Below, piece after piece: positions 46,139-64,000 of a stretch of 64,000 bases of DNA. The stretch comes from a virus. Its lineage: Duplodnaviria; Heunggongvirae; Uroviricota; Caudoviricetes. The stretch is taken from IMG/VR virus record IMGVR_UViG_2703718815_000003. One strand, 5' to 3'. The position numbers and the translations under genes were made by a program. A model generated the notes under the pieces. That model had not been told where the DNA came from. It saw only the letters and a list, made by a program, of their open reading frames with translations, and ran no database searches. How positions within the stretch are numbered: position 1 is the first letter of the stretch; every line of letters starts with the position of its first letter.

Positions 46139-46225
46139 TGGCGGAGAGTAATGGAATCGAACCATCATCGCTTGCGCAATGGGACGGTTTTCAAGACCGC
46201 TTGAGCACCATGCTCCCTACTCTCC
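46139..46225 (-). tRNA. tRNA-Ser (anticodon UGA), CCA encoded
   Basis: manual fold: acceptor GGAGAGT/ACTCTCC, anticodon loop CTTGAAA, long variable arm, T-loop TTCGATT. Confidence 0.75.
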
Positions 46226-46438
46226 AGTTGTTGTGGTGCCGGGGGCTTCCCGGTGTCCTTTGGCTGGTTATCCACCGTGGACGGAGCCAATAGTCATCAC
46301 AAAGGATCAATATAACCATTTCCCCGCGTGCGCTTAGCCGCATTCACCACAACGAAAAGAGCACTGTATGACGTTTGCACGGACTTACGCTTAAAACAGG
46401 GCAGTCTCGGCGGTTCTCAATGCTCTTTCCTGTTGTGT

Positions 46439-46514
46439 TGGTGCCGGTTAACGGATTCGAACCGCCGACCATTCGCTTACAAGGCGACTGCTCTACCAAC
46501 TGAGCTAAACCGGC
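46439..46514 (-). tRNA. tRNA-Thr (anticodon UGU), CCA encoded
   Basis: manual fold: acceptor GCCGGTT/AACCGGC, D-arm GCTCAGTTGGTAGAGC, anticodon loop CTTGTAA, T-loop TTCGAAT. Confidence 0.75.
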
Positions 46515-46518
46515 AATT

Positions 46519-46605
46519 TGGTGGGGAGTGATGGAGTCGAACCACCCGAGTCGCAATGACAGTAGATTTACAGTCTACACCGCTACCTCTACGGACTAAC
46601 TCCCC
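46519..46605 (-). tRNA. tRNA-Tyr (anticodon GUA), CCA encoded
   Basis: manual fold: acceptor GGGGAGT/ACTCCCC, anticodon stem GTAGA/TCTAC with loop CTGTAAA, long variable arm. Confidence 0.75.
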
Positions 46606-46610
46606 TAAAT

Positions 46611-46685
46611 TGGCGATGGTGGGTGGATTCGAACCACCGACCAGTTGGTTAACAGCCAACTGCTCTACCGCTGAGCTACACCATC
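46611..46685 (-). tRNA. tRNA-Asn (anticodon GUU), CCA encoded
   Basis: manual fold: acceptor GATGGTG/CACCATC, anticodon stem GTTGG/CCAAC with loop CTGTTAA, T-loop TTCGAAT. Confidence 0.75.
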
Positions 46686-56132: not shown

Positions 56133-56492
56133 TCAACCTTTCTTCATCAACTCTCGTTTAATTTCATCGGTACGCATCGTAACGTCGGCAGCTGTGATCG
56201 CCTCGTTAAGCTTCACGATGTCCTCGATTTCCTGCGGTGACTTCTCTGCCAGATGGAAAATGGCTGCTCGAATCACGTCAGAACGAGTGAACTTCTCGAA
56301 GCGAGGGATGAACTTCATCATCTCCAGCAGTTCGAAGTATTCGTCCTCCAGTGACATTGTGCGGCTTTTAATTTTCTCTTTGCCACGAGTCGGGCGTCCC
56401 TGTGGTCTGACTGGTTGGCGCAAAGGAGTTGTGTTCTTAGCCGGTGCATCAGGCTCTTTGCGCTTTGCTAGGTCACCCATTTTCATGGACAT
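56133..56492 (-). CDS. ParG/ParB-like small partition protein (RHH-type, tentative)
   Basis: 119 aa; basic disordered N-terminus, C-terminal strand-helix-helix-like segment; start overlaps parA stop. Confidence 0.45.
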   Translation of the reverse strand: MSMKMGDLAKRKEPDAPAKNTTPLRQPVRPQGRPTRGKEKIKSRTMSLEDEYFELLEMMKFIPRFEKFTRSDVIRAAIFHLAEKSPQEIEDIVKLNEAITAADVTMRTDEIKRELMKKG

Positions 56493-57160
56493 TATTCTTC
56501 TTCCTCCAGACTCAACAGATAATCTACAAATTCTTCAAACTCGGCTTCCGCCTTTTTGTCGCGCTCGCTACCGGTCATTTCAAAGATAGAACGACCAGAC
56601 TCTTCCGCATCATCATAGACGTTGCGGTTATATAGATTGACTGGCGCAGACTCGATTCCAAACGTCTCAACAATCTCTTTAGCCGCCAGAATGCGAGACA
56701 CTTGTGATGGCAAAGCCGGGCACTGGTTCATGACCGCGCGGACCTTCACTTTATCGTTTACATTGCGAACATTGTCGATAATAGGATCGATGTCACGTAA
56801 AGATTTCAAATCACGACGCTTAGGACGCAGCGGGATAATGATAACGTCAGCCATCAGCATCGCTTGTCGCTGAATTTCGGAGTCGAAGCCACCAGCATCT
56901 ACCACTACAAACTCAGCTCTACCCTGAAGCGATTTTAGGTGCTTAATGATGTCATCCTGAACGTATGCAAAAGGAATCAGCTCAAGGTCTTCGTTCTGTC
57001 GACGGTCTTCACACCAGCTCGTTGTCGTGCGCTGAATATCTATATCGGTAATATAAACCTTCTTCTTCTTTTTGACTTTCAGGCAAACGGCAATTTGCTG
57101 GGCAACGGTGGATTTGCCAGGCCCGCCCTTTGTGCCGCCAACCACAAAGATCTTGGTCAT
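56492..57160 (-). CDS. parA: ParA-family partition ATPase (small type Ib)
   Basis: deviant Walker A VVGGTKGGPGKST, Walker B FVVVDAGG. Confidence 0.8.
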   Translation of the reverse strand: MTKIFVVGGTKGGPGKSTVAQQIAVCLKVKKKKKVYITDIDIQRTTTSWCEDRRQNEDLELIPFAYVQDDIIKHLKSLQGRAEFVVVDAGGFDSEIQRQAMLMADVIIIPLRPKRRDLKSLRDIDPIIDNVRNVNDKVKVRAVMNQCPALPSQVSRILAAKEIVETFGIESAPVNLYNRNVYDDAEESGRSIFEMTGSERDKKAEAEFEEFVDYLLSLEEEE

Positions 57161-57478
57161 TGGAGAGTTCCCTTTGCGTATATAATTATCGTCTGAAACA
57201 ACTTGTTTTCTTATATGTGATATAGCCTAAATGCCTACGGCTGCGGTGTAAAGGTTAAATGGTAGGTTGTGATTAACAATTGGCAATCATAGCTTGTATT
57301 TGTCTGTTGAAAAAAGTAACAATGACCTCTATATTACAAGTACGGTGATATGCCGTACACAATTTGATAATGCACACGTAATGGGCTATAGCCTTTTAAA
57401 GTAATTTTTGAGTCGAAAACTCAGTTTGAACAGAGGAGATTGATGGCCTTCCTACATCACGGCCATCAGGAGGAATAC

Positions 57479-57748
57479 ATGTCAGCACTAAAAAAGCAGC
57501 GCATCGATTTGAGATTAACCGATGACGATAAAAGCATCATCGAGGAAGCTGCCGCAATGTCTAACCAGAGCATTACTCAGTTTATGGTTAGCAGTGCATC
57601 TGAACGTGCCGTGAAAGTTATAGAGCAACACCGTAGACTAGTTCTGAATGAAGAATCCTGGAATCTGGTTATGGACGCTATAAGCAATCCTCCGGCACCG
57701 AACGACAAGCTGAAACGAGCTGCTGATCGTCTGAAAAGCATGGAGTAG
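57479..57748 (+). CDS. TacA-like RHH antitoxin
   Basis: 89 aa from internal ATG 57479 with AGGAGG RBS; MSALKKQRIDLRLTDDDKSIIEEAA... matches GNAT-associated antitoxins. Confidence 0.65.
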   Translation: MSALKKQRIDLRLTDDDKSIIEEAAAMSNQSITQFMVSSASERAVKVIEQHRRLVLNEESWNLVMDAISNPPAPNDKLKRAADRLKSME

Positions 57749-57755
57749 TTTACTC

Positions 57756-58277
57756 GTGAGCAATACAACGATAGAGATTTTCTCTGGAGAGAAAGATTAT
57801 GATCTAAACGGTTTTGATTGCGGCGAAGAGTCACTAAACGCCTTTTTAGCCAACCACTTAAAAAGGCAGCATGAGGGAAAAATTCTTCGTGCTTATGTGC
57901 TTTGCACTCAAGAAGAAAGGCCAAAAGTGTTAGGATATTACACTTTGTCAGGTAGTTGTTTTGAAAAGGAGTCCTTACCTTCAAGAAGCAAACAAAAGAA
58001 GGTTCCTTATCGGAATGTTCCAAGTGTTACTTTGGGTAGGCTGGCTTTGGACAAGTCCCTTCAAGGTCAAGGATTTGGCTCAATGCTTGTAACACATGCA
58101 ATGCGCGTTGTGTACAATGCATCTCTTGCTGTAGGCATTCATGGACTTTTCGTTGAGGCGTTAAATGACAAAGCCAAGGCGTTTTATAAAAGTTTAGGCT
58201 TTATCCAGCTGGTTGGTAACAACGAGCGTTCTTTGTTCTATCCTACAAAATCTATCGAAAAATTGTTCGAAGAATAA
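57756..58277 (+). CDS. GNAT-family acetyltransferase toxin (TacT-like)
   Basis: 173 aa, GTG start 8 nt after antitoxin stop; acetyl-CoA motif QGQGFGSMLV. Confidence 0.7.
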   Translation: MSNTTIEIFSGEKDYDLNGFDCGEESLNAFLANHLKRQHEGKILRAYVLCTQEERPKVLGYYTLSGSCFEKESLPSRSKQKKVPYRNVPSVTLGRLALDKSLQGQGFGSMLVTHAMRVVYNASLAVGIHGLFVEALNDKAKAFYKSLGFIQLVGNNERSLFYPTKSIEKLFEE

Positions 58278-58445
58278 TGTGTTCCCCTCATTTGAGGGGA
58301 ACTTCGACATCACCAACCACAAACCCTCTCTCCCATCGTATTGTGAAAAAGGATTTGGCGTTCGGTTTCTTCAGTCATTACATCATTATTGCTGATATAG
58401 ATAGGCTCAGCCCCATCGCAGAACAACACGCTGGCTGTTTGTGGT

Positions 58446-58697
58446 TTAATGACGCACCCACTTATCATACAACTCACGATGAACGGCAGAAGCATCTTTC
58501 TGACGTATTTTACTGCTCGTCTCATTCACCACTTTCACTGTGTTTTGAAGTCGTTTTCTGTCTTCCTGTTTTGCCTTCTCTTCCATTGCTCGTCGCGCCG
58601 CATTCCCGCCCATCGTGTAAGCGCCGACAAGAACGAAAAGAACGGCAGCCAGCGTAATCAAAGCAACTTTTAGCTTTGTCATCAGGCTGCCTAGCAT
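58446..58697 (-). CDS. small membrane protein with coiled-coil (spanin- or holin-associated candidate)
   Basis: 83 aa, N-terminal TM helix then charged helix. Confidence 0.3.
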   Translation of the reverse strand: MLGSLMTKLKVALITLAAVLFVLVGAYTMGGNAARRAMEEKAKQEDRKRLQNTVKVVNETSSKIRQKDASAVHRELYDKWVRH

Positions 58698-58698
58698 A

Positions 58699-59418
58699 TT
58701 AGACCATCCCTTTCTGGTGTTTTCTTACCTGCGACCAGGCAATGAATCCTGCCACAACAATAGTGGCAATACCGAAGATGATGCGTACTGTATCCCCGCT
58801 AGAGATATGACCTTGTGCTTTATCCATAGCAGCGGAAACCTGCGGCATAACATCGGCCAGCTGCGCCAGACCAATACCTGCTGTAACAGTTGCGCCTGCG
58901 GTTTCTTTAGTTACAGGAACAGCCTTCACGGTTTTCACCGGCTTAACAACGCCAGCTCGACGCAGACCTTCCTCAATAACTTCTGCCGCATACCAGGTGT
59001 TCAGCGTTTTTAGCGGGCCTCGGCCATTCTCGTGGCGAATGATTGCCTCAACCAAAGGTCGAAGGATGTCGTAATCATGCAGATCGATGATCATGTCTGC
59101 GGTTACACCAACGGCTTTAGACACCTCATTAATGTAGGCGTCAGTATTGTTTTCATTCGGCGGTGCCCAGCGTTCAATAACTTCACGAATGGTATCGATA
59201 CTTGTGCCGTCTTTTGCGCGACGTTTATCGTGGTAGGTAATTAGAGTCACCGCCAGCGCACGAATCCCCCAAACAGGGTCTTTAAACGTGCAAAAGCGCG
59301 GTTCGTCTGGATTCGCAACCAGACCTTGCCACGGTGATCCTTTATCAAGATTACCGGGGTTATTATTACGAATGCCTCTCGGAGTCTTCATCCTTGATCT
59401 CCTGTTATTGCAGTCCAC
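58699..59418 (-). CDS. hypothetical protein with C-terminal transmembrane anchor (possible cell-wall-acting protein)
   Basis: 239 aa; conserved-looking GIRNNNPGNL motif; C-terminal hydrophobic helix. Confidence 0.3.
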   Translation of the reverse strand: MDCNNRRSRMKTPRGIRNNNPGNLDKGSPWQGLVANPDEPRFCTFKDPVWGIRALAVTLITYHDKRRAKDGTSIDTIREVIERWAPPNENNTDAYINEVSKAVGVTADMIIDLHDYDILRPLVEAIIRHENGRGPLKTLNTWYAAEVIEEGLRRAGVVKPVKTVKAVPVTKETAGATVTAGIGLAQLADVMPQVSAAMDKAQGHISSGDTVRIIFGIATIVVAGFIAWSQVRKHQKGMV

Positions 59419-59740
59419 TTTTTACGCCATACGCGGCTAACCCCAAAAGCAGTGCGGTAATAATGAACGACGTTATTTTAGAAACAATGCCGCCAAAGAA
59501 CCCACTTGAGATGGAATCTAACCGGTTAAGGAGTTTGTCCAGATTGGAGTGTTGAATACTATGTTGCGCCGGGGTCATATCACCAAAGTAGGTTTTCAGC
59601 TGATCATTGACCTCCTGGCCAATTTCTTCACGTAGCTCTTTACCTAATTTGCCGACAACTTCACGCGCAACGATAGCGGCAATGCGCTCTACCTGCTCTG
59701 GCGTTACGCCTGCCATCTCGTTCGACATTATTTCCTCCAT
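59405..59740 (-). CDS. tail-anchored small membrane protein
   Basis: 111 aa, single C-terminal TM helix. Confidence 0.3.
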   Translation of the reverse strand: MEEIMSNEMAGVTPEQVERIAAIVAREVVGKLGKELREEIGQEVNDQLKTYFGDMTPAQHSIQHSNLDKLLNRLDSISSGFFGGIVSKITSFIITALLLGLAAYGVKSGLQ

Positions 59741-59802
59741 GAATCGTCAAATCGGGATGGCGGTTTTATATCATAAAACGCCCACACTTGGTAGGTAAGT
59801 AC

Positions 59803-60642
59803 TTACACATGAGCGCCGTAAATTGCCCCAACTTTAGTCCAAGTTGGAGCATTACCAGTAACAGCTTTACCAGCTGCTCCGCCGTTATATTCTGTACCGT
59901 TACCTTGAGTATTACATCTTCCTCCAGCAGCACCGACATTACCACCCGAACCGCCTGTATATGCACTAAGAGACCCCTCACCAACAGATCCTTTACCAGG
60001 AGCGGAAATAGTACCAGCAGTTGCACCGGAACTCATATGAGAGGAAGACCCACCAGCACCGAATGGGCGACCACCGCCACCACCAAATATTAGTTTACCC
60101 CTGTTACCGCCGCCACCGCCGCCGCCACCTCCAGCGATTGCACCATTATTCGTAATACGCAAGCGTGTACCGATGCCATTATTAATTGCGTTACCACCAG
60201 CAGCACCGGCAGCGTTACTACCACCATTGCCACCGCGTCCATAGACAGTCACACCTGCGTTGATTACAAGGCTGATATAAGAGTTGGTAAGTGAACTCGG
60301 GAAATCTAAACATGGCACGCCGCTACTGGACGACACCAGATCCCCTGTAATGGTAACAACGACTGGCGTCGCCCCCTGGGATTTTAAATAGTTGATCAGT
60401 GTGTCTTTGTTGTAGTTATGATTCGCACCGATGCTGTACTGAACTTCTTTAGATCGCCCGGCCATTTGAGACATTGAACCAGCCGCTGGCAGTTGCACCG
60501 CCGTTCGAGCCGCACTCATCCATCTCTGGCCTGTCACACTGACAGCCGAAGACCCAATCCAACCGGGAACACCGACAATTGGCACATCTAATCTCCTTTT
60601 TGATGTGAATATCCTGAATTGGTGAGGGTGGCCCCTCACCAT
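59803..60642 (-). CDS. glycine-rich protein, possible tail-fibre adhesin/accessory protein
   Basis: 279 aa with poly-Gly stretches (GGGGGGGGGN, GGGGGRPFGAGG) immediately downstream of tail fibre gene. Confidence 0.4.
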   Translation of the reverse strand: MVRGHPHQFRIFTSKRRLDVPIVGVPGWIGSSAVSVTGQRWMSAARTAVQLPAAGSMSQMAGRSKEVQYSIGANHNYNKDTLINYLKSQGATPVVVTITGDLVSSSSGVPCLDFPSSLTNSYISLVINAGVTVYGRGGNGGSNAAGAAGGNAINNGIGTRLRITNNGAIAGGGGGGGGGNRGKLIFGGGGGRPFGAGGSSSHMSSGATAGTISAPGKGSVGEGSLSAYTGGSGGNVGAAGGRCNTQGNGTEYNGGAAGKAVTGNAPTWTKVGAIYGAHV

Positions 60643-60651
60643 TCACCTTGA

Positions 60652-63600
60652 TTACATTTTTGCCTTCAGTTCGCGCACTTCCTCGCGCAGCTCTTTGACA
60701 GCCTCGACCAACATGCCGATAACGCCGTTGTAGTTAAGACGCAGACGAGGCTCTCCTGACTGATCGTTATGGTCAACCGTTACCAGTTCAGGCTGAACAT
60801 TCTGGACGTCCTGAGCGATGAGGCCGCCAGACTGCTCATACCGGTCACAGACCTGAATCTCGTACAGAACACCTTCGATCCGATCCAGCTTGTCGAGCGC
60901 TCGTTCAATCTTGCGAATATTGCGTTTGCTACGACGGTCAGAGCGGATATAAACGTCATTAAAGCTGCCATTACCGCCACAAACCCAAGTACCATCATTC
61001 TGGAGGTATGCGTTCGCATCCGTGCCGTTTGCGGTACGTGAGTTGTTGATCATGTAAAAACCAAACTGACTGTTTCCCAAGCCACCCAAGAAGAATTTGC
61101 GATCCGCGTGGTCTTGTCTCAACAACGCTTGTGCAGAGCTTGTACTTACAGCGTTCCTCCCGAAGATGACGTTCTGGTTACGCATATCTATCCACGCGCC
61201 AGAGCCGCTGTTGATGGAAAAACGGTTGGCGTAAACCCACGCACTTGACGTGATGTCACCCGTTACACTCAACGGCTTAAGGCTTTGCAGCGTGCTATTA
61301 ACGAACCTAAAAACATGGGCGCTATTGGCGTAAACATCCAGAATGCCATCTCCGTTCTGTTTAAAGCCGGTGTCATTGTCACCCAGAACAATGGAATTAC
61401 CGCCAAGACCATTGACCACACCCAGCCCAAGACCACCGTTAACAACAGCACCATTGCCCATTGTTACTCTGCCATTAGTGAGATCTACATAAAATGGACG
61501 AAGCGAACCTATATCACCATTTTCTCCCTGGTCTTTTGCTGTCGGGATAAGGTAAAAATTATTTTCGGAACGGCGAAAAATCATCCCGTATGCCGCATCG
61601 TAAATGCGTAACCCATCCGTAGAGCGGATCTTAAGCTGTCCGGACATCGTACCGCCGCTGTTTTTCATAAATAGCGCATCAATCCAGCCTGCAAATCCCG
61701 ACTTATTAATGTATAAATTTCCATCATTTGCCAGAATGCCTCCACCTTGCGTCTTGAGGGGCTGACTCACATTTTGCAGCGTCAGCACACCAGTCATTGT
61801 TCCGCCAGAAATCGGTAACGCACCGACATCAGCCGCAGTGGGTTTGAGAGCAGTGTTGTAATCTCTGCGCCAGGCAGGGGCATACGCGCTACCGTGATTA
61901 ATATAGGTGAACTGAGCACTGGCAATACCACCTCCGGTTGTCGTTGTAGGCGTAGTAACTCGGATGGTCATTGCGCCTTCGTGACCTAAAACCTCGATAA
62001 CCGCACCAGCAAGACAAATATTGCCGACACCTGTATCAGTGATAATTTTATTGTCGGCATATGACCAAGAGCCTTTCATCATCCAATACGGTACGGCGAA
62101 AGCACCACGCTCCTTCAGCCATGCGATAAATTCAGCGGTAGTCCAGTTGCCAGCCCCAGTACTGTATGACGCGCTAAACGTCTGTGCAGCCCCAACATCT
62201 TTCGCTGTGGGTTTATGAGCAGTGGTATAGACCTGCGCCCAACCAGACCAATTCGCTGTCGAAGTATCACGGCGTGAACGAACATAAACCGGTGCATGAG
62301 CACCATCCGTTCCGCTCCAGCCAACAAGCATCTCGCCCTCACCAGAAGCACTCGCACCTTTCATGTGCAATACGTTGCCATACATGGTCGGGTAGCTATT
62401 GTTGTACGCCTCATACATTTGAATGCCAGCAGTGCCTTGAGTAGAGCCGCTTAACGCCGTAACTCGGCCACGAGATACCAATGTATTAATATTGATATCG
62501 CCTGAACCATCAAACTTAACACCATTGATGTTTCTCGCTGTTTGCAACTTCGTAGCCGTTGAAGCATTGCCATTCAAGCTACCATTTACGCCACCAGTAA
62601 CATTGAGTCCATTAGCGATCGTAACAGCACCATTGGCATTGTTAATGATAAGCGGCCTTAAACTATTATAGGTTCCCAGGCTGTTACCCGAATTGGTCAA
62701 CATGAAATATGTGTTTGAACCATCGTTTCGGATAAAGAATCCGTAGCTTCCGTAGGCAATGCGCAGACCATTCGCCGATTTTGAAATGATCTCACCAGTA
62801 GCCGTTAAACCGCCGTTGAGATTTCCTCCGGTTATTGGTAATGCGCCGACATCCGTGGCGGTCGGTTTAATGTGCGAACTGTAAATGACATATACCGTTC
62901 CATCAGTAAGACCAGTTGGTTTATTCGCTGTATAAGTTGGTGATGTATGAATCGTTACGCTGGCGTTACTGGTATAATCCCACTGAATATTAACACCTGT
63001 GGCGTAATTACCTATTTCAACATAAACATCATAGGTATCACCGGATGTATTCACCCATGCAAAATTAGTAAATCCAACCGATGTCCGTCGCCATAATGCA
63101 CCAGTAATACCCTTTGGATTTCCATTTCCGGCACGCAGAACCAGCTCAGAGATGCCTGCTTGATGCGGGGAGCCAACGTTATACCCTGCACCACCAATCA
63201 GGCTTATGTAAACCACGGAACTGGCCTGTGGCATGGTTACAGTTGCCAGCTTGAACCATCCGGCACCACCACTAAAAGATATTGTTGCTGAGTTGATCGT
63301 GCCTATAGACCTTGGAGTTAGCTCAATGTTTTTAGAACCGTCAAACGACACCCCATTAATAGTACGCGCAGTCTGCAACTTCGTAGCAGTAGCCGCATTA
63401 CCTGTTGTATTCTGATTACCAGTCGTATTAACACCTGGCAAATTAATATTTGCAGTACCATCAAAGCTCACGCCGCCGATAGTTCTTGCCGTCTGTAGTT
63501 TTGTAGCAGTTGCGGCATTACCAGTGGTGTTCTGATTACCCGTAGTATTTACACCTGGAAGGTTGATATTTGCAGAACCGTCGAAACCAACTCCACCGAT

Positions 63601-63966
63601 AGATCTTGCCGTCTGCAATTTCGTTGCTGTACTTGCATTACCATTTAATGTTCCGGTGATACCACCAGTAACAGACAACGGACCTGAAACTGTTCCTCCG
63701 GTTGTTGGCAGTGCTCCAATATCTAACGGCGTCGGTTTCTGATGTGTGCTATACATCGTATAAACAACACCATAGGTAACGCTGGAAGGCTTACTCGCTG
63801 AATATGTTGGCGATGTATAAATAGAAACTGACGCATTTGCAGTACAATCCCAATGGATATTTACACTCGTCGCATAATTGCCAATTTCAACGTAAATATC
63901 ATATGTATCGCCGGATGTGTTGATCCAGGCGAAATTCGCTAATCCGACAGCTGTACGCTTCCACAA
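60652..63966 (-). CDS. tail fibre protein with C-terminal intramolecular chaperone domain (5' end beyond window)
   Basis: repeated NINLPGVNTTGNQNTTGNAATATKLQTARTIGGVSFDG modules; C-terminal ...YIRSDRRSKRNI... Ser-Lys motif; ORF open to the window edge. Confidence 0.75.
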   Translation of the reverse strand: MWKRTAVGLANFAWINTSGDTYDIYVEIGNYATSVNIHWDCTANASVSIYTSPTYSASKPSSVTYGVVYTMYSTHQKPTPLDIGALPTTGGTVSGPLSVTGGITGTLNGNASTATKLQTARSIGGVGFDGSANINLPGVNTTGNQNTTGNAATATKLQTARTIGGVSFDGTANINLPGVNTTGNQNTTGNAATATKLQTARTINGVSFDGSKNIELTPRSIGTINSATISFSGGAGWFKLATVTMPQASSVVYISLIGGAGYNVGSPHQAGISELVLRAGNGNPKGITGALWRRTSVGFTNFAWVNTSGDTYDVYVEIGNYATGVNIQWDYTSNASVTIHTSPTYTANKPTGLTDGTVYVIYSSHIKPTATDVGALPITGGNLNGGLTATGEIISKSANGLRIAYGSYGFFIRNDGSNTYFMLTNSGNSLGTYNSLRPLIINNANGAVTIANGLNVTGGVNGSLNGNASTATKLQTARNINGVKFDGSGDININTLVSRGRVTALSGSTQGTAGIQMYEAYNNSYPTMYGNVLHMKGASASGEGEMLVGWSGTDGAHAPVYVRSRRDTSTANWSGWAQVYTTAHKPTAKDVGAAQTFSASYSTGAGNWTTAEFIAWLKERGAFAVPYWMMKGSWSYADNKIITDTGVGNICLAGAVIEVLGHEGAMTIRVTTPTTTTGGGIASAQFTYINHGSAYAPAWRRDYNTALKPTAADVGALPISGGTMTGVLTLQNVSQPLKTQGGGILANDGNLYINKSGFAGWIDALFMKNSGGTMSGQLKIRSTDGLRIYDAAYGMIFRRSENNFYLIPTAKDQGENGDIGSLRPFYVDLTNGRVTMGNGAVVNGGLGLGVVNGLGGNSIVLGDNDTGFKQNGDGILDVYANSAHVFRFVNSTLQSLKPLSVTGDITSSAWVYANRFSINSGSGAWIDMRNQNVIFGRNAVSTSSAQALLRQDHADRKFFLGGLGNSQFGFYMINNSRTANGTDANAYLQNDGTWVCGGNGSFNDVYIRSDRRSKRNIRKIERALDKLDRIEGVLYEIQVCDRYEQSGGLIAQDVQNVQPELVTVDHNDQSGEPRLRLNYNGVIGMLVEAVKELREEVRELKAKM

Positions 63967-64000
63967 AGCACCTGTAATTCCTTTGGGGTTTCCATTGCCT

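Follow-up and report, generated by a model that had tools for sequence, protein, structure and literature searches.

A T2/S16-type tail-fibre tip with a gp38-like adhesin and a mosaic shaft predicted in an SSU5-like phage-plasmid

According to the model published for phages of the T2/S16 type, removal of an intramolecular chaperone (IMC) domain from the end of the tail fibre exposes a docking surface, and a monomeric gp38 adhesin then caps the fibre trimer (PMC9569957, PMC6851490, PMC7917993), a model taken to cover "the vast majority of T-even-like phages" (PMC9569957). Cleavage sites are on record for S16 gp37 (DLNVS^SDRRIKK) and for the T2-like Yersinia (fPS) phages (DVYIR^SDGRLKI) (PMC7917993). 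Recent papers on gp38 treat this adhesin as a feature of the Straboviridae, and we found no description of it outside that family, in SSU5-like elements or phage-plasmids, in the open-access literature, which is weak evidence of absence. Here we analyze a window of 64,000 nucleotides (nt), i.e., the whole stretch of DNA under study, from the caudoviral IMG/VR record IMGVR_UViG_2703718815_000003. A region close to its end very probably encodes the tip by which the long tail fibre of an SSU5-like phage-plasmid recognises its host, organised on the T2/S16 plan.

The 4.3-kilobase (kb) region in question matches 487 records in a search of the plasmid database PLSDB, nearly all of them E. coli, Enterobacter and Citrobacter plasmids that are non-mobilisable and measure about 105-120 kb; the phages SSU5 and CMS-2020a match it as well. 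The DNA around the locus is collinear with the SSU5-group plasmids at high identity, with 97.9% over 3.2 kb to CP059946. Further, a set of flanking genes is common to the window and the records of its relatives, namely a holin, an endolysin, spanins, a TacA/GNAT toxin-antitoxin pair and parA. Because the matching plasmid and phage records carry these same flanking genes, the window is assigned to an SSU5-like E. coli phage-plasmid.

The fibre end, its chaperone domain and its adhesin

The fibre gene lies on the minus strand, with its TAA stop at 60652-60654 and a frame that is open to 63999 and leaves the window; the visible part (60652..64000) comprises the C-terminal 1115 codons and the stop. 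The exact protein is already present in the NCBI database as an entry of 1692 amino acids (aa; P0001), of which residues 578-1692 are 100% identical to the window translation. The apparent TTG start at 63966 is an artefact produced by the open reading frame (ORF) caller at the window edge: the gene continues past the window, a truncation that had gone unremarked in the initial annotation of this DNA. Its assignment to a tail fibre is borne out by four Pfam matches in the visible protein (three to Gp34_trimer, strongest at fibre aa 375-452, i.e., 62644-62877, and one to Peptidase_S74) and by matches to PHROG tail-fibre families. The distal shaft and tip modules match the PDB entries 5YVQ (2.4e-64) and 8JU3 (2.7e-54); this part is 97.9% identical to CP059946 at the nt level, and the tip is 99% identical at the aa level to gp21 of SSU5.

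The Peptidase_S74 match (42.5 bits versus a cut-off of 22) covers aa 1020-1074 of the 1115 visible residues and begins at profile position 1, exactly on the motif SDRRSK, consistent with the Ser-Lys autoproteolytic chaperone signature that had been noticed at this C-terminus. The domain aligns with the IMC of S16 gp37 (PDB 6F45_A), and the site by which it would be released can be predicted as NDVYIR^SDRRSK, between the Arg at 60943-60945 and the Ser at 60940-60942. This sequence matches both published sites, its SDRRSK aligning with the SDRRIK of S16. The approximately 100 aa that precede this site resemble residues 351-430 of the Mu S protein (5YVQ, 5.2e-33) and not T-even gp37.

Directly after the fibre gene (stop at 60652) comes a glycine-rich gene with its own Shine-Dalgarno sequence. 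A start at 60642 does not hold: the true start is the GTG at 60585, seven bases after AAGGAG, consistent with the 783 nt annotated in relatives. Its product matches Pfam GP38 (PF05268; 1.8e-70, 237.6 bits versus a cut-off of 25) and Gp38_N (PF21721; 1.2e-14, 54.5 bits versus a cut-off of 25), the 'host specificity' family PHROG 2056 (1.7e-92), and the S16 gp38 chain 6F45_D (E 1.3e-47, over residues 27-277 of the 279-aa ORF translation). Glycine makes up 23% of the protein and 36% of aa 111-245, with a Gly9 run at 60106-60132 and also a Gly5 run. Homologues in relatives are annotated as 'receptor-recognizing protein', and the SSU5 record calls its own a tail fibre adhesin. These profiles mark the product as a bona fide gp38 adhesin of the T2/S16 type, and the initial suggestion of a tip adhesin thereby gains the support of both GP38 and 6F45_D. 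By homology, the chaperone domain and the adhesin would form a single known functional unit, the T2/S16-type tip, a connection that the initial annotation had missed.

The glycine-rich protein might instead be a T4-type gp38, a short non-structural assembly chaperone that lacks glycine-rich receptor-binding motifs, with the fibre's own tip binding the receptor. Several database records do call the T-even homologues 'distal long tail fiber assembly catalyst', and the tip before the IMC is homologous to Mu S, a direct receptor binder. However, the protein has a full GP38 adhesin domain with glycine-rich motifs, shares 85% of its aa with the adhesin of Bas45 (the T-even phage PaulHMueller), and aligns with the structure of the S16 adhesin at the E-value given above; moreover, the sequence of T4 gp38 is very different (PMC6851490), and the fibre has a chaperone of its own in the IMC. 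We therefore regard this explanation as highly improbable and retain the adhesin assignment.

On the adhesin assignment, a plausible sequence of events can be laid out. The fibre protein of approximately 1700 aa would trimerise, its shaft being a string of exchangeable beads composed of the β modules A1 and A2, the ATKLQTAR repeats, and the T4-gp34-like and Mu-S-like segments. The 96-aa IMC would nucleate folding of the trimer and then excise itself at NDVYIR^SDRRSK by means of the dyad of Ser and Lys(+5). One 260-aa gp38 monomer could then dock by its N-terminal helical domain on the exposed trimer end, and its C-terminal polyglycine-II sandwich would present hypervariable loops to an outer-membrane protein, predicted to be OmpA. 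An intergenic hairpin (dG, the folding free energy, -26.1 kcal/mol; z -3.3; no U-tract) separates the fibre stop from the Shine-Dalgarno sequence of gp38. It might adjust how much gp38 is made per fibre protein (1:3 stoichiometry), or it might shield the mRNA upstream of it.

The tip is itself modular among relatives. In SSU5 and many Enterobacter plasmids, the tip and IMC are 94-99% identical at the aa level to those of the window and are followed by a 178-aa adhesin (e.g., L003 7273-7809; L007 4106-4642), in which Gp38_N and the last gp38 strand are joined by an unrelated segment of approximately 100 aa in place of the glycine sandwich. By its domain content, this SSU5-type 'tail fiber adhesin' appears to be a gp38 derivative. 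It is followed by three small genes, one for a Cor-like lipoprotein, none of which is found in the window. The gp38 of one Enterobacter plasmid shares its attachment half with the window protein but differs from it in the variable loops, and pAMPD01 has neither IMC nor adhesin. About 83 plasmid records have the tip at an identity of at least 80%, and 87 have a Gp38_N-bearing gene, these being separate counts whose accessions were not matched one by one. An obligatory pairing of the S74 tip with a full gp38 was considered and rejected, as many IMC-bearing relatives code for the short SSU5-type adhesin; the rule suggested by the relatives is an IMC with some Gp38_N adhesin, not an IMC with a glycine-rich gp38.

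The same comparison bears on docking. The third of the conserved docking Trp residues is Ser in the window and Asn in the Enterobacter plasmid homologue, both full-length phage-plasmid gp38 proteins (window 60460-60579; L008 1501-2289); it is kept in the 178-aa SSU5-type protein (L003 7273-7809), which sits on a 99%-identical tip. Judging from these alignments, substitution of the third Trp seems to be tolerated, the docking geometry being a prediction.

A chimeric adhesin and its predicted receptor

Comparison of the gp38 gene with that of Bas45 divides it into three parts. The first 342 nt show 115 mismatches (66% identity); nt 358-758 show only 8 mismatches in 401 nt (98%), with an uninterrupted identical run of 161 nt at 59966-60126; and the last 25 nt show 11 mismatches, again a low identity. 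The 5' breakpoint falls where the first glycine-rich motif, VYGRGG, is encoded; the second lies near the 3' end. Separate searches with the two halves agree: the 3' half matches Bas45 at 97.5% identity and Krischvirus phages at 87-91%, and for the 5' half no T-even phage exceeds 70%, a value of approximately 95% being reached only by the phage-plasmid CMS-2020a. At the protein level, the RB49-group gp38 proteins are 80-85% identical to the window adhesin, with 80-84% for RB49, Cognac49 and Whisky49. Over the C-terminal 150 codons only four aa differ from Bas45; in the alignment these map to a Gly-rich stretch and to the last residues, and the variable loops show no difference. The adhesin thus reads as a chimera of a phage-plasmid-type attachment half and a receptor-binding half common to virulent T-even phages.

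Bas45 is an OmpA-dependent Tequatrovirus (PMC8594841), and RB49, Cognac49 and Whisky49 have been tested and found to be OmpA-dependent (PMC9569957). Further, a swap of the distal half of gp38 suffices for a receptor switch (bioRxiv 10.64898/2026.04.02.716166). Because the receptor-binding block is nearly identical to that of Bas45, the RB49-group relatives are OmpA-dependent, and the distal half sets the receptor, we predict that OmpA is probably the receptor here too.

Several observations weigh against the reading of the region as a working T2/S16-type tip directed at OmpA. What the sequence shows directly is the homologies, the motifs, the order of the genes, the mosaic junctions and the variation in copy number; expression, cleavage, docking, location in the virion and the receptor are predictions. 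Of the three Trp 'prongs' by which S16 gp38 is anchored on gp37, the third is Ser here; and the approximately 100 aa leading up to the cleavage site resemble Mu S and not the T-even phages, so the docking geometry cannot simply be taken from 6F45. Changes of single residues in the hypervariable loops can switch the receptor of gp38 (bioRxiv 10.64898/2026.04.02.716166), and RB49-group gp38 recognises some O antigens as well (PMC9569957). Given the loop changes, the use of O antigens, the replaced Trp and the Mu-S-like tip, OmpA remains a prediction.

The loop and O-antigen results, with the four residues that differ from Bas45 in the C-terminal 150 codons, favour the alternative that the architecture is as described and the receptor is another porin or an O antigen. 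However, the loops themselves are identical to those of Bas45, the differences being confined to the Gly-rich stretch and the last residues, and both characterised relatives, Bas45 and RB49, need OmpA. A receptor other than OmpA is therefore the less likely of these outcomes, although it keeps an appreciable probability.

The chimeric gene further suggests, as a tentative proposal to which we would give slightly less than even weight, that a T-even-type gp38 works on the fibre of a temperate phage-plasmid, docking by two of three Trp residues onto a Mu-S-like tip, and that its receptor-binding cassette was exchanged very recently with virulent Tequatrovirus phages. If so, resident phage-plasmids and superinfecting T-even phages would draw on one pool of receptor-binding cassettes, by which either could be retargeted.

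Repeats and mosaic construction of the fibre shaft

Repeats in the fibre protein were located by a diagonal BLOSUM scan; self-BLASTP of the fibre returned only the trivial self-match. They comprise two copies of a large module, A1 and A2, which also align as DNA (63693-63999 versus 62823-63129, blastn E 2e-36), and the short repeats R1-R4. The first three short repeats form an array at 63319-63642 (Tandem Repeats Finder, period 120) of two 40-aa units and one 28-aa core, and a fourth core lies at 62488-62571. The initial annotation had counted at least two modules of about 100 aa and three short units: both sets of copies are present and far exceed what chance would give, with the module proving to be 177 aa long and the short copies totalling four. 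Its further statement that the copies are nearly identical as DNA is contradicted by the alignments, in which A1 and A2 share 70.5% of nt and 70% of aa in the window, the short repeats are 67-77% identical at the nt level, and the longest exact match is 11 nt between the modules and 7-14 nt between the short repeats. R1 and R2 are 90% identical in aa but only 77% in nt, and they therefore appear to be old copies held by selection on the protein.

Pfam matches only the last ~30 residues of the 177-aa module, and a sequence search of the PDB with the module gave no match. An AlphaFold2 model based on a seven-sequence alignment is all-β and of low confidence (pLDDT 58.6, pTM 0.61). A Foldseek search of the PDB with this model gave no match at E ≤0.001 and no query-normalised TM-score above 0.42, only generic β-sandwiches being returned.

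Relative to its relatives, the fibre DNA reads as a mosaic of three pieces. Positions 59400-62571 are closest to CP059946 (97.9% nt identity), 62493-63642 to pAMPD01 (97.8%), an SSU5-like plasmid with another distal end, and 63359-64000 again to CP059946 (92.8%); the P1-like plasmid pB188_p0111 matches 62495-63560 at 93%, and the A2 cassette is common to P1-like plasmids at 93-96%. The overlaps between the pieces are located in the R repeats. From these junctions and the cassette matches it follows that A2 was, in all likelihood, imported as an R-A2-G-R unit by recombination between fibre alleles. The internal 'duplications' would then arise by recombination of different fibre alleles at conserved short repeats, which thereby appear to act as linkers between genomes, not as hot spots of intragenic duplication.

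Relatives also vary in copy number. The CP059946 fibre has one A module and four tandem repeats, that of CP075488 has 2 + 2 repeats flanking an unrelated insert of ~180 aa, and in SSU5 a single diverged A-like module is accompanied by two R repeats; in the 120 best-scoring fibre clusters the numbers range from 1 to 3 for the A module and from 3 to 6 for the R repeat. The repeats are thus not invariant among relatives, as had been foreseen.

The existence of repeat families and this variation in copy number are what could be expected if the repeats were recent in-situ duplications serving as substrates for intragenic recombination, which would resize the fibre and switch host range, as the initial annotation had proposed. 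Against this stand the divergence of the copies (67-77% nt identity, longest exact match 11-14 nt) and, for R1 and R2, the signature of old copies under purifying selection. Efficient RecA-type recombination usually needs ~25 nt or more of exact identity. Since the exact matches fall below this, recombination in situ is unlikely, the copies being too diverged as intragenic substrates. The module pair was likewise considered as a recent tandem duplication and rejected: A2 is 97.8% identical to the pAMPD01 allele and only ~70% to A1, pointing to import and not local copying. Overall, in-situ duplication appears improbable, and import of the cassette from another fibre allele is preferred.

Two side observations concern the fibre proteins. 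A conserved motif, H/L-KPT-x-x-D-V/I-GA, ends each globular fibre module (aa ~88-100, 378-392, 590-600 and 722-735; e.g., 62824-62868). Modules that do not resemble each other in any other way (A versus M2) have only this motif in common, and it may represent another, second type of recombination linker. In pAMPD01 (NZ_CP058309.1; L006 4156-8253), the tail fibre of 1365 aa is labelled 'short-chain fatty acid transporter', an evident misannotation, and the same label is found on CP088541.

Genomic neighbourhood and relation to known systems

The features of the window are collected in Table 1. Besides the genes common to relatives, a KAP-family P-loop NTPase gene occupies a low-GC patch (GC 0.33), in a place taken by other genes in relatives (DUF2971, AAA ATPase); this locus is probably a variable anti-phage islet adjoining parA.

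Table 1. Features of the fibre-adhesin region and of its surroundings, in window coordinates.
Feature	Position	Strand	Remarks
Module A1, distal 114 aa of the 177-aa β module	63658..63999	minus	Beginning outside the window; 92.8% nt identical to CP059946
Tandem repeats R1-R3 (40 + 40 + 28 aa)	63319..63642	minus	GNAxTATKLQTARxIxGVxFDGxxNIxL, with or without a 12-aa linker
Module A2, second copy of the 177-aa β module	62788..63318	minus	76.8% aa identical to full-length A1 (over 177 aa)
Cassette R-A2-G-R, 1.15 kb	62493..63642	minus	Both ends inside R repeats
Segment G, T4 gp34-like trimerisation/β-helix	62590..62787	minus	PDB 4UXE/5NXF (T4 gp34), E ~3e-20
Repeat core R4	62488..62571	minus	Junction of the cassette with the CP059946-like distal part
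Distal shaft and tip modules, aa 524-1019	60943..62430	minus	Homologous to Mu/P1 tail fibre S
IMC domain, 96 aa	60655..60942	minus	Pfam Peptidase_S74 (PF13884), 8.2e-11
SDRRSK, predicted Ser nucleophile and Lys five residues on (Ser-x4-Lys dyad)	60925..60942	minus	Letters NDVYIRSDRRSK
Intergenic RNA hairpin	60615..60645	minus	Between fibre stop and gp38 Shine-Dalgarno; core GGTGAGGG-GCCA-CCCTCACC at 60621-60640
gp38-type adhesin gene, 260 aa	59803..60585	minus	GTG start 60585; Shine-Dalgarno AAGGAG 60593-60598
Gp38_N attachment domain	60460..60579	minus	Two of three conserved Trp present (GW, RW); third is Ser
Receptor-binding block of glycine-rich motifs (GRM) and hypervariable segments (HVS) (polyglycine sandwich)	59828..60228	minus	98% nt identical to gp38 of T-even phage PaulHMueller (Bas45)
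Lysis cassette	58310-59740	minus	Directly after gp38
Putative holin	59405-59740	minus	phrog_5093
Endolysin	58699-59418	minus	phrog_873
Two overlapping small ORFs	58446-58697, 58310-58525	minus	Position of SSU5 Rz-like spanins
TacA-like antitoxin and GNAT acetyltransferase toxin pair	57440-58277	plus	Just downstream of the lysis genes
ParA-type partition ATPase, likewise just downstream of lysis	56492-57160	minus	
KAP-family P-loop NTPase, 567 aa	54387-56090	minus	Pfam 1e-4; PADLOC candidate defence family PDC-S49, 2.3e-22
Four tRNA genes: Ser-TGA, Thr-TGT, Tyr-GTA, Asn-GTT	46139-46685	minus	

The locus would determine the host range of a widespread E. coli/Enterobacter phage-plasmid family, some members of which are reported to carry resistance genes (PMC9600943), and it permits a receptor call (OmpA) from sequence. 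It is a clear case of a fibre rebuilt by cassette swaps at short conserved linkers, and it documents traffic of receptor-binding domains between temperate phage-plasmids and virulent T-even phages, which is relevant to host-range prediction in phage therapy and to engineered adhesin swaps. The system is of an already known kind and reveals no new mechanism; the modest new points are the chimeric adhesin, whose receptor-binding cassette is that of a T-even phage, and the clean junctions of the cassettes within the fibre.

Among the mosaic fibres, segments are held in common with Mu S, P1 S and T4 gp34/gp37 (5YVQ, 8JU3, 4UXE), and P1-like plasmids share the A2 cassette; as a difference, the locus has neither an invertible segment nor a separate Tfa/U-type assembly chaperone. 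The S74 chaperones of the endosialidase endoNF and of the T5 L-shaped fibre protein pb1 are likewise C-terminal domains with a Ser-x4-Lys dyad at the first residue. Here, in contrast, a separate adhesin is presumed to dock at a site that release of the domain creates, as it does in T2/S16. With Bas45 and the RB49-group gp38 proteins the receptor-binding half is shared, whereas the attachment half is only ~66-70% identical in nt to any T-even gp38 and matches only phage-plasmids. The gp21 (fibre) and gp22 (adhesin) of SSU5 belong to the same element family, with a tip 99% and an IMC 94% identical in aa and an adhesin that starts with Gp38_N; they differ in the shorter adhesin without glycine sandwich, the three extra genes after it, and a fibre with a single diverged A-like module and two R repeats. 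The closest described system is the S16/T2 fibre tip (PDB 6F45), to which the locus conforms in predicted function and on every point that sequence can test. The carrier here is an SSU5-like phage-plasmid and not a member of the Straboviridae, the shaft is made of other modules, the approximately 100 aa before the cleavage site are Mu-S-like, and the third docking Trp is Ser. In both, however, the fibre gene is followed by that of the adhesin, a self-cleaving S74 chaperone marked by an SDRRxK site closes the fibre protein, and the adhesin follows the same plan of Gp38_N joined to a glycine-rich receptor-binding domain.

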